Sequence record: Z35638.1
From: Escherichia phage phiX174
DNA length: 3,164 nt
Strand: one strand, 5' to 3'
Shown here one piece after another: positions 2,729 through 3,019 of this stretch. Every line of letters begins with the position of its first letter. Within the stretch, counting starts at the first letter, position 1. The notes beneath the pieces were generated by a model, which worked only from the letters and a program-made list of their open reading frames with translations, was not told the origin of the DNA and searched no databases. Made by a program: the position numbers and the translations under genes.

Positions 2729-3019
2729 ATGTCTAAAGGTAAAAAACGTTCTGGCGCTCGCCCGAATTCACTGGCCGTCGTTTTACAACGTCGTGACTGG
2801 GAAAACCCTGGCGTTACCCAACTTAATCGCCTTGCAGCACATCCCCCTTTCGCCAGCTGGCGTAATAGCGAAGAGGCCCGCACCGATCGCCCTTCCCAAC
2901 AGTTGCGCAGCCTGAATGGCGAATGGCGCCTGATGCGGTATTTTCTCCTTACGCATCTGTGCGGTATTTCACACCGCATATGGTGCACTCTCAGTACAAT
3001 CTGCTCTGATGCCGCATAG
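2729..3019 (+). CDS. lacZ: In-frame fusion of the first 12 codons of phiX174 gene J ([12 protein letters not shown]) to the lacZ alpha-peptide ([55 protein letters not shown]...), stop TAG 3017-3019
   Basis: ORF from the track; the N-terminus equals the recalled J start, the junction is the EcoRI site (2764-2769), and the remainder equals the pUC lacZ-alpha from its EcoRI site onward. The native J SD (AGGAG about 2716-2720) precedes the ATG. Confidence 0.8.

Follow-up and report, generated by a model that had tools for sequence, protein, structure and literature searches.

The 3,164-nt stretch of DNA that we analyzed (the window) is an engineered derivative of pUC19, in which a tac promoter is followed by a BamHI-EcoRI fragment of phiX174 with a deliberately recoded lysis gene E, and in which the start of phage gene J reads into lacZ-alpha, very probably giving an alpha donor. 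The J and lacZ portions of the resulting open reading frame both match their sources exactly, and such matches cannot be due to chance. That the alpha-donor peptide is made, and that its production tracks transcription through the E cassette, is a reasonable prediction from the sequence.

As a whole, the window is a complete, man-made, circular plasmid of the pUC19 type. Its two ends abut as they do in pUC, with the last bases (...ACCGAAACGCGCGA) running into the first bases (GACGAAAGGGCC...). A sequence search found that positions 1 to 2232 are 100% identical to pUC-derived shuttle vectors, and the window contains bla, a ColE1-type origin, the lac promoter, lacZ-alpha, and the EcoRI end of the polylinker, as expected for a vector of this type. 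The polylinker itself has been swapped for a consensus tac promoter and nucleotides 460 to 882 of phiX174. The bla gene (201-1061) is annotated as blaTEM-116 in the matching records, which is an allele typical of pUC vectors. Also, among the plasmid records with 99.9 to 100% identity to the backbone, several that are presented as "natural" appear to be vector-derived; their labels include Bacillus, Agrobacterium, and giant-panda E. coli. The coordinates of the features are given in the table.

Table. Features of the window from the vector lac promoter to the end of lacZ-alpha (+ and -, strand;., not stranded)
Feature	Position	Strand	Basis or remark
Vector lac promoter	2144-2173	+	Promoter scan, 9/12 matches
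lacO of vector lac promoter	2180-2200	+	
Vector lacZ Shine-Dalgarno sequence	2207-2215	+	
Vestigial vector lacZ' ORF, ATG + 6 codons (MTMITPS)	2218-2241	+	Translation
Destroyed HindIII site, now AAGCTGAATTCAGCTT	2235-2250	.	Sequence reading
tac promoter (TTGACA, 16-nt spacer, TATAAT)	2267-2294	+	Promoter scan, 12/12 consensus matches
lacO of tac promoter	2301-2321	+	
Orphan lacZ Shine-Dalgarno sequence of tac cassette	2328-2336	+	No ATG behind it
BamHI site	2336-2341	.	End of tac cassette
Truncated, recoded D frame, lacking start and codons 1-23	2340-2729	+	Pfam gpD, profile positions 23-141 of 141; stop TAA 2727-2729
phiX174 nt 460-882 (D from codon 24, entire E, J codons 1-12)	2341-2763	+	95% identity to phiX174 records
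Lysis gene E, 91 aa	2449-2724	+	Protein identical to phiX174 E (LYS_BPPHS); stop TGA 2722-2724
Gene J Shine-Dalgarno sequence AAGGAG	2716-2721	+	7 nt upstream of ATG, inside 3' ends of E and D
J'-'lacZ-alpha fusion ORF, 96 aa + TAG	2729-3019	+	ATG start; no stop until 3017
EcoRI junction GAATTC	2764-2769	.	G2764 is third base of J codon 12; AAT TCA are the M13mp/pUC EcoRI codons in lacZ
M13 universal primer site, -20	2770-2786	-	Vector remnant within alpha coding region
M13 universal primer site, -40	2790-2806	-	Vector remnant within alpha coding region

The fusion begins with codons 1 to 12 of J (2729-2764), and the encoded residues are the same as residues 1 to 12 of phiX174 J. The DNA is identical to that of the phage up to phiX174 nucleotide 882; the next base, G2764, belongs to the EcoRI site and changes J codon 12 from CCT to CCG, which is synonymous. 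Just 12 of the 38 codons of J, the gene for a DNA-packaging protein, are present, so the reading frame does not amount to a J gene. Downstream of codon 12, the sequence continues as AAT TCA CTG GCC GTC GTT TTA CAA, in the lacZ-alpha frame. In the junction sequence (CGAATTCACTGGCCGTCG), the match to vector DNA of the pUC19 type starts at the EcoRI site, and a record of this type has GAGCTCGAATTCACTGGCCGTCG. Residues 14 to 67 of the fusion are identical to residues 7 to 60 of E. coli beta-galactosidase (E = 4e-31), with N13 in place of D6. Together, N13 and this stretch are encoded at 2765-2929. They are followed by a pUC-specific alpha tail of 29 residues (2930-3016), and a pUC18-type record has the same tail up to the TAG. 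In effect, the 12 residues from J stand in for residues 1 to 5 of LacZ. Read through the EcoRI site in the other two frames, the sequence meets stops after 9 and 49 codons. A Pfam scan of the fusion protein gave no match, as expected for a 55-residue fragment of beta-galactosidase.

The region that is deleted in lacZ-deltaM15 corresponds to residues 11 to 41 of beta-galactosidase. This segment is present whole in the fusion, without any changes, and is in frame with the start codon. So, two claims of the sequence-only reading, that the EcoRI site joins J codon 12 exactly to the lacZ-alpha frame and that the alpha-complementing region is preserved, both hold at the level of the sequence. On the minus strand, a GTG-initiated reading frame of 104 amino acids (2674-2988) runs opposite lacZ-alpha and the ends of E and J; nothing supports it, and it is most probably spurious.

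Upstream of the fusion, the phage segment contains a full-length gene E, and the product matches the Pfam family Microvir_lysis (PF04517, E = 1.8e-22). A base-by-base comparison to a phiX174 record identified 21 substitutions in 15 codons of E, all of them between 2475 and 2637. None of the 21 alters an amino acid of E, but in the D frame, which overlaps E, 14 codons are changed nonsynonymously. The recoding yields eight restriction sites that are unique in the plasmid: NheI (2475), HindIII (2511), BclI (2519), SalI (2535), EagI (2548), SacI (2556), XhoI (2601), and PstI (2628). This is the layout of a gene for cassette mutagenesis, and the recoded E is a more distinctive mark of the plasmid than the J-lacZ junction is. 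The E protein is lytic to the host and inhibits MraY, as stated in an excerpt of PMC10614894.

Transcription into the phage segment could come from two sources. The lac promoter of the vector and the tac promoter lie in tandem, with their full lacO1 operators 121 bp apart, and both are aimed into the lethal gene E. A scan of 1950-3164 found no terminator-like sites. From the ATG of the vector's lacZ (2218), only seven codons can be read before a TGA (2239-2241), which a putative adaptor would have created. The orphan Shine-Dalgarno sequence of the tac cassette (2328-2336) has its nearest start codon, TTG, at position 2349; this codon belongs to the truncated D frame.

The adaptor probably accounts for the destroyed HindIII site as well: the sequence there, AAGCTGAATTCAGCTT, is what would result if a HindIII site were broken by a self-annealing HindIII-to-EcoRI adaptor (AGCTGAATTC). 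Because the vector's HindIII site is destroyed, the cassette's own HindIII site stays unique. The adaptor region also adds a second EcoRI site (2240-2245). With EcoRI sites at 2240 and 2764, the unit of tac, E, and J' can be excised as a 524-bp EcoRI fragment.

The start of J has the features of an efficient initiation site. The sequence-only reading placed a Shine-Dalgarno sequence inside the 3' ends of E and D and described the D stop and the J start as overlapping in TAATG, and we found both: AAGGAG at 2716-2721 and TAATG at 2727-2731, where the TAA of D (2727-2729) shares a base with the ATG of J (2729-2731). The TGA of E ends 4 nt upstream of the ATG. The predicted duplex of the J site with the anti-Shine-Dalgarno sequence (-8.3 kcal/mol) is the strongest among the six start sites that we compared; the values for E, the vector's lacZ, and bla are -5.6, -4.3, and -5.6 kcal/mol, respectively. 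The J site also has the highest predicted accessibility among the sites compared (mean probability of being unpaired, 0.51), and the 111 nt around the start fold less stably than the mean of shuffled sequences (z = +1.31). On the tac transcript, no start codon other than the ATG of J has a strong and well-spaced Shine-Dalgarno sequence. A start-stop pair, ATG TAA (2724-2729), is present between AAGGAG and this ATG; it comprises the last codon and the stop of D and is native to phiX174. The ATG of the pair is unlikely to be used because it is only 2 nt from the Shine-Dalgarno sequence. We also considered whether the alpha frame might be entered from an upstream in-frame start, which is ruled out by a TGA at 2678-2680: this closes the frame, and the ATG of J is the first start downstream of it.

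These features suggest how the alpha donor would be expressed. Transcripts from the tac promoter, along with read-through from the lac promoter, would pass through E into lacZ-alpha, and both promoters are under lac operators. Ribosomes would then start de novo at the ATG of J using the native AAGGAG. The product would be a peptide of 96 amino acids, consisting of residues 1 to 12 of J, an asparagine, residues 7 to 60 of beta-galactosidase, and the pUC tail, and lacZ-deltaM15 cells would be expected to use it as their alpha donor. Blue color would report the presence of the plasmid and transcription through the E cassette, and would be largely independent of the translation of E. Given two upstream lac-type promoters, no terminator-like site, and the strongest of the ribosome sites at J, an alpha-donor peptide is to be expected, as judged from consensus matches and energy predictions.

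Among the closest known systems are the in-frame lacZ-alpha fusions of pUC19 and M13mp, with a polylinker or an insert. These share with the window the backbone, the EcoRI codons (xxG AAT TCA CTG GCC), the alpha region, the C-terminal tail, and control by lac operators. However, in the window, it is phage J that supplies the start codon and the ribosome site, and not lacZ; the lacZ start of the vector is cut off by the early TGA, and an extra tac promoter drives the transcript. The overlap of D, E, and J in native phiX174 provides a second comparison. Nucleotides 757 to 882 of the phage are identical in the window (2638-2763), including AAGGAG, the stops of E and D, and the ATG of J. In contrast to the phage, J is cut after codon 12, D is heavily recoded as well as lacking its start and first 23 codons, and the region beyond J, including the TJ terminator (phiX174 nucleotides 901 to 1091), is missing.

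Two other kinds of constructs are similar in purpose or in parts. In work from the Young lab on the MS2 lysis gene L, a co-transcribed lacZ-alpha was reportedly used to screen survivors for intact expression. As in the window, one transcript from an inducible promoter would encode both a lethal lysis protein of the single-gene kind and the alpha donor; the alpha donor in the window differs in that it starts at the phage J ribosome site, as a 12-codon fusion. Protein fusions of E' to lacZ from the 1980s are said to have been used for mapping the function of E. Those also combine DNA from the phiX174 lysis region with lacZ, but they reportedly join E itself to beta-galactosidase, whereas the window has an intact E that ends at its normal stop, and it is J, in another frame, that is fused to lacZ.

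We considered whether the fusion might instead be a translationally coupled reporter of E or D, with ribosomes that terminate on either gene reinitiating at the ATG of J. The arrangement of the codons fits this, since the TGA of E abuts the ATG and the TAA of D overlaps it, and reinitiation after termination is known to occur where stop and start codons overlap (according to an excerpt of PMC6728339). However, coupling also needs an upstream reading frame that is efficiently translated, and neither candidate seems to qualify. Because the start and the first 23 codons of D are missing, the native termination-reinitiation coupling from D to J should be largely absent, and we rejected it as the driver of translation. 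The only start candidates in the D frame are the TTG at 2349 and an ATG at 2562, with weak matches to the Shine-Dalgarno sequence (-4.1 kcal/mol). Thus, the claim of the sequence-only reading that the fusion uses the native D/J junction stands for the TAATG and the Shine-Dalgarno sequence, which are intact, but not for the coupling that the junction would provide in the phage. As for E, its ribosome site is weaker than that of J, and most of the signal should therefore reflect mRNA rather than the translation of E; ribosomes terminating on E would make at most a small contribution to initiation at J. With a J site that is both stronger than E's and predicted to be accessible, independent initiation should dominate, and a coupled reporter is quite unlikely. 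We have still less confidence in another alternative, that the reading frame is open and yet yields no useful alpha-complementation, whether because the peptide is unstable or complements poorly or because lysis precedes color. It is true that lethal E is on the same transcript (E inhibits MraY, according to the excerpt of PMC10614894). Also, the 12 residues from J are very basic, and this N terminus could affect the stability of the peptide. However, the active alpha peptide of pUC19 has a longer non-native N-terminal stretch, from the polylinker; the segment removed by deltaM15 is all there; and the ribosome site of J outscores that of the vector. It is also plausible that a short N-terminal extension is tolerated, because solved beta-galactosidase chains of 1052 amino acids have about 28 additional N-terminal residues. 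Production of a working alpha donor by independent initiation at J remains our preferred reading.

Whether the in-frame fusion was deliberately designed is a separate question, and we consider the prospects to be about evenly balanced. It has slightly less than an even chance of being purely a by-product of cloning, in which a fragment with E was put into the BamHI and EcoRI sites of pUC19 and the fusion arose by accident and was never used, even if the peptide is perhaps made. A junction will be in frame by chance one time in three; what lies beyond EcoRI, lacZ-alpha with the M13 primer sites, is a standard pUC19 remnant; and we did not find any documented use of the construct as a reporter in the full-text literature. 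Furthermore, the phiX174 portion ends exactly at the top-strand cut position of a natural CC^TGG site (phiX174 nucleotides 881 to 885). This BstNI-type site is lost in the window, at 2762-2764. However, judging from the sequence, standard linkers (8- or 10-mers) added to a BstNI end that has been made blunt cannot yield CC followed by GAATTC, so the match to the cut position is probably a coincidence. A filled-in EcoRI end does not give this junction either, and we rejected a natural restriction fragment as the origin of the right end; it is more likely to be synthetic or made by PCR. In fact, both ends of the insert look synthetic, as the BamHI end requires a change of T459 to C. The builders were also careful with reading frames and with the uniqueness of sites, as seen from the 15 synonymously recoded codons and the destroyed HindIII site of the vector. 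Finally, E does not need the 39 nt past its stop, and these bring in precisely the ribosome site of J with 12 codons.

A more specific proposal is that the EcoRI end was set at J codon 12 on purpose, with an alpha donor partly coupled to the termination of E, so as to provide a color screen during cassette mutagenesis: missense mutants of E (non-lytic and blue) would be told apart from survivors with promoter defects, plasmid loss, or strongly polar mutations. This proposal as a whole is rather unlikely, although distinguishing non-lytic E mutants from promoter or plasmid-loss survivors is a plausible use of such a plasmid. We did not find a paper that describes the plasmid in the full-text literature, even with the recoded sequences as queries. 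Nor did we find the exact fusion protein in a collection of 15 billion proteins, the junction DNA in genome or metagenome contigs, the recoded E segment in viral contigs, or the construct in any plasmid or E. coli record searched. With neither a plasmid record nor a paper, the sequence-only reading was justified in its caution about design versus by-product.

For practical use, induction with IPTG also makes lethal wild-type E from the same promoters, which confounds a color readout on X-gal. This co-induction of E limits the use of the wild-type cassette as a reporter.

Overall, the feature belongs with the in-frame lacZ-alpha fusions of pUC and M13mp, which are a kind of feature that is already known: it is routine in vectors and has no natural novelty. 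It has little importance for biology, as it is an artifact of building a vector from the D/E/J overlap of phiX174, the EcoRI site of pUC19, and lacZ-alpha. Its value is mostly for annotation: the reading frame at 2729-3019 should be labeled as a J'-'lacZ-alpha fusion and not as a natural gene, and the window should be annotated as a synthetic plasmid that encodes a toxic lysis protein. An alpha donor, if active, would also offer an easy way to monitor transcription of the E cassette.
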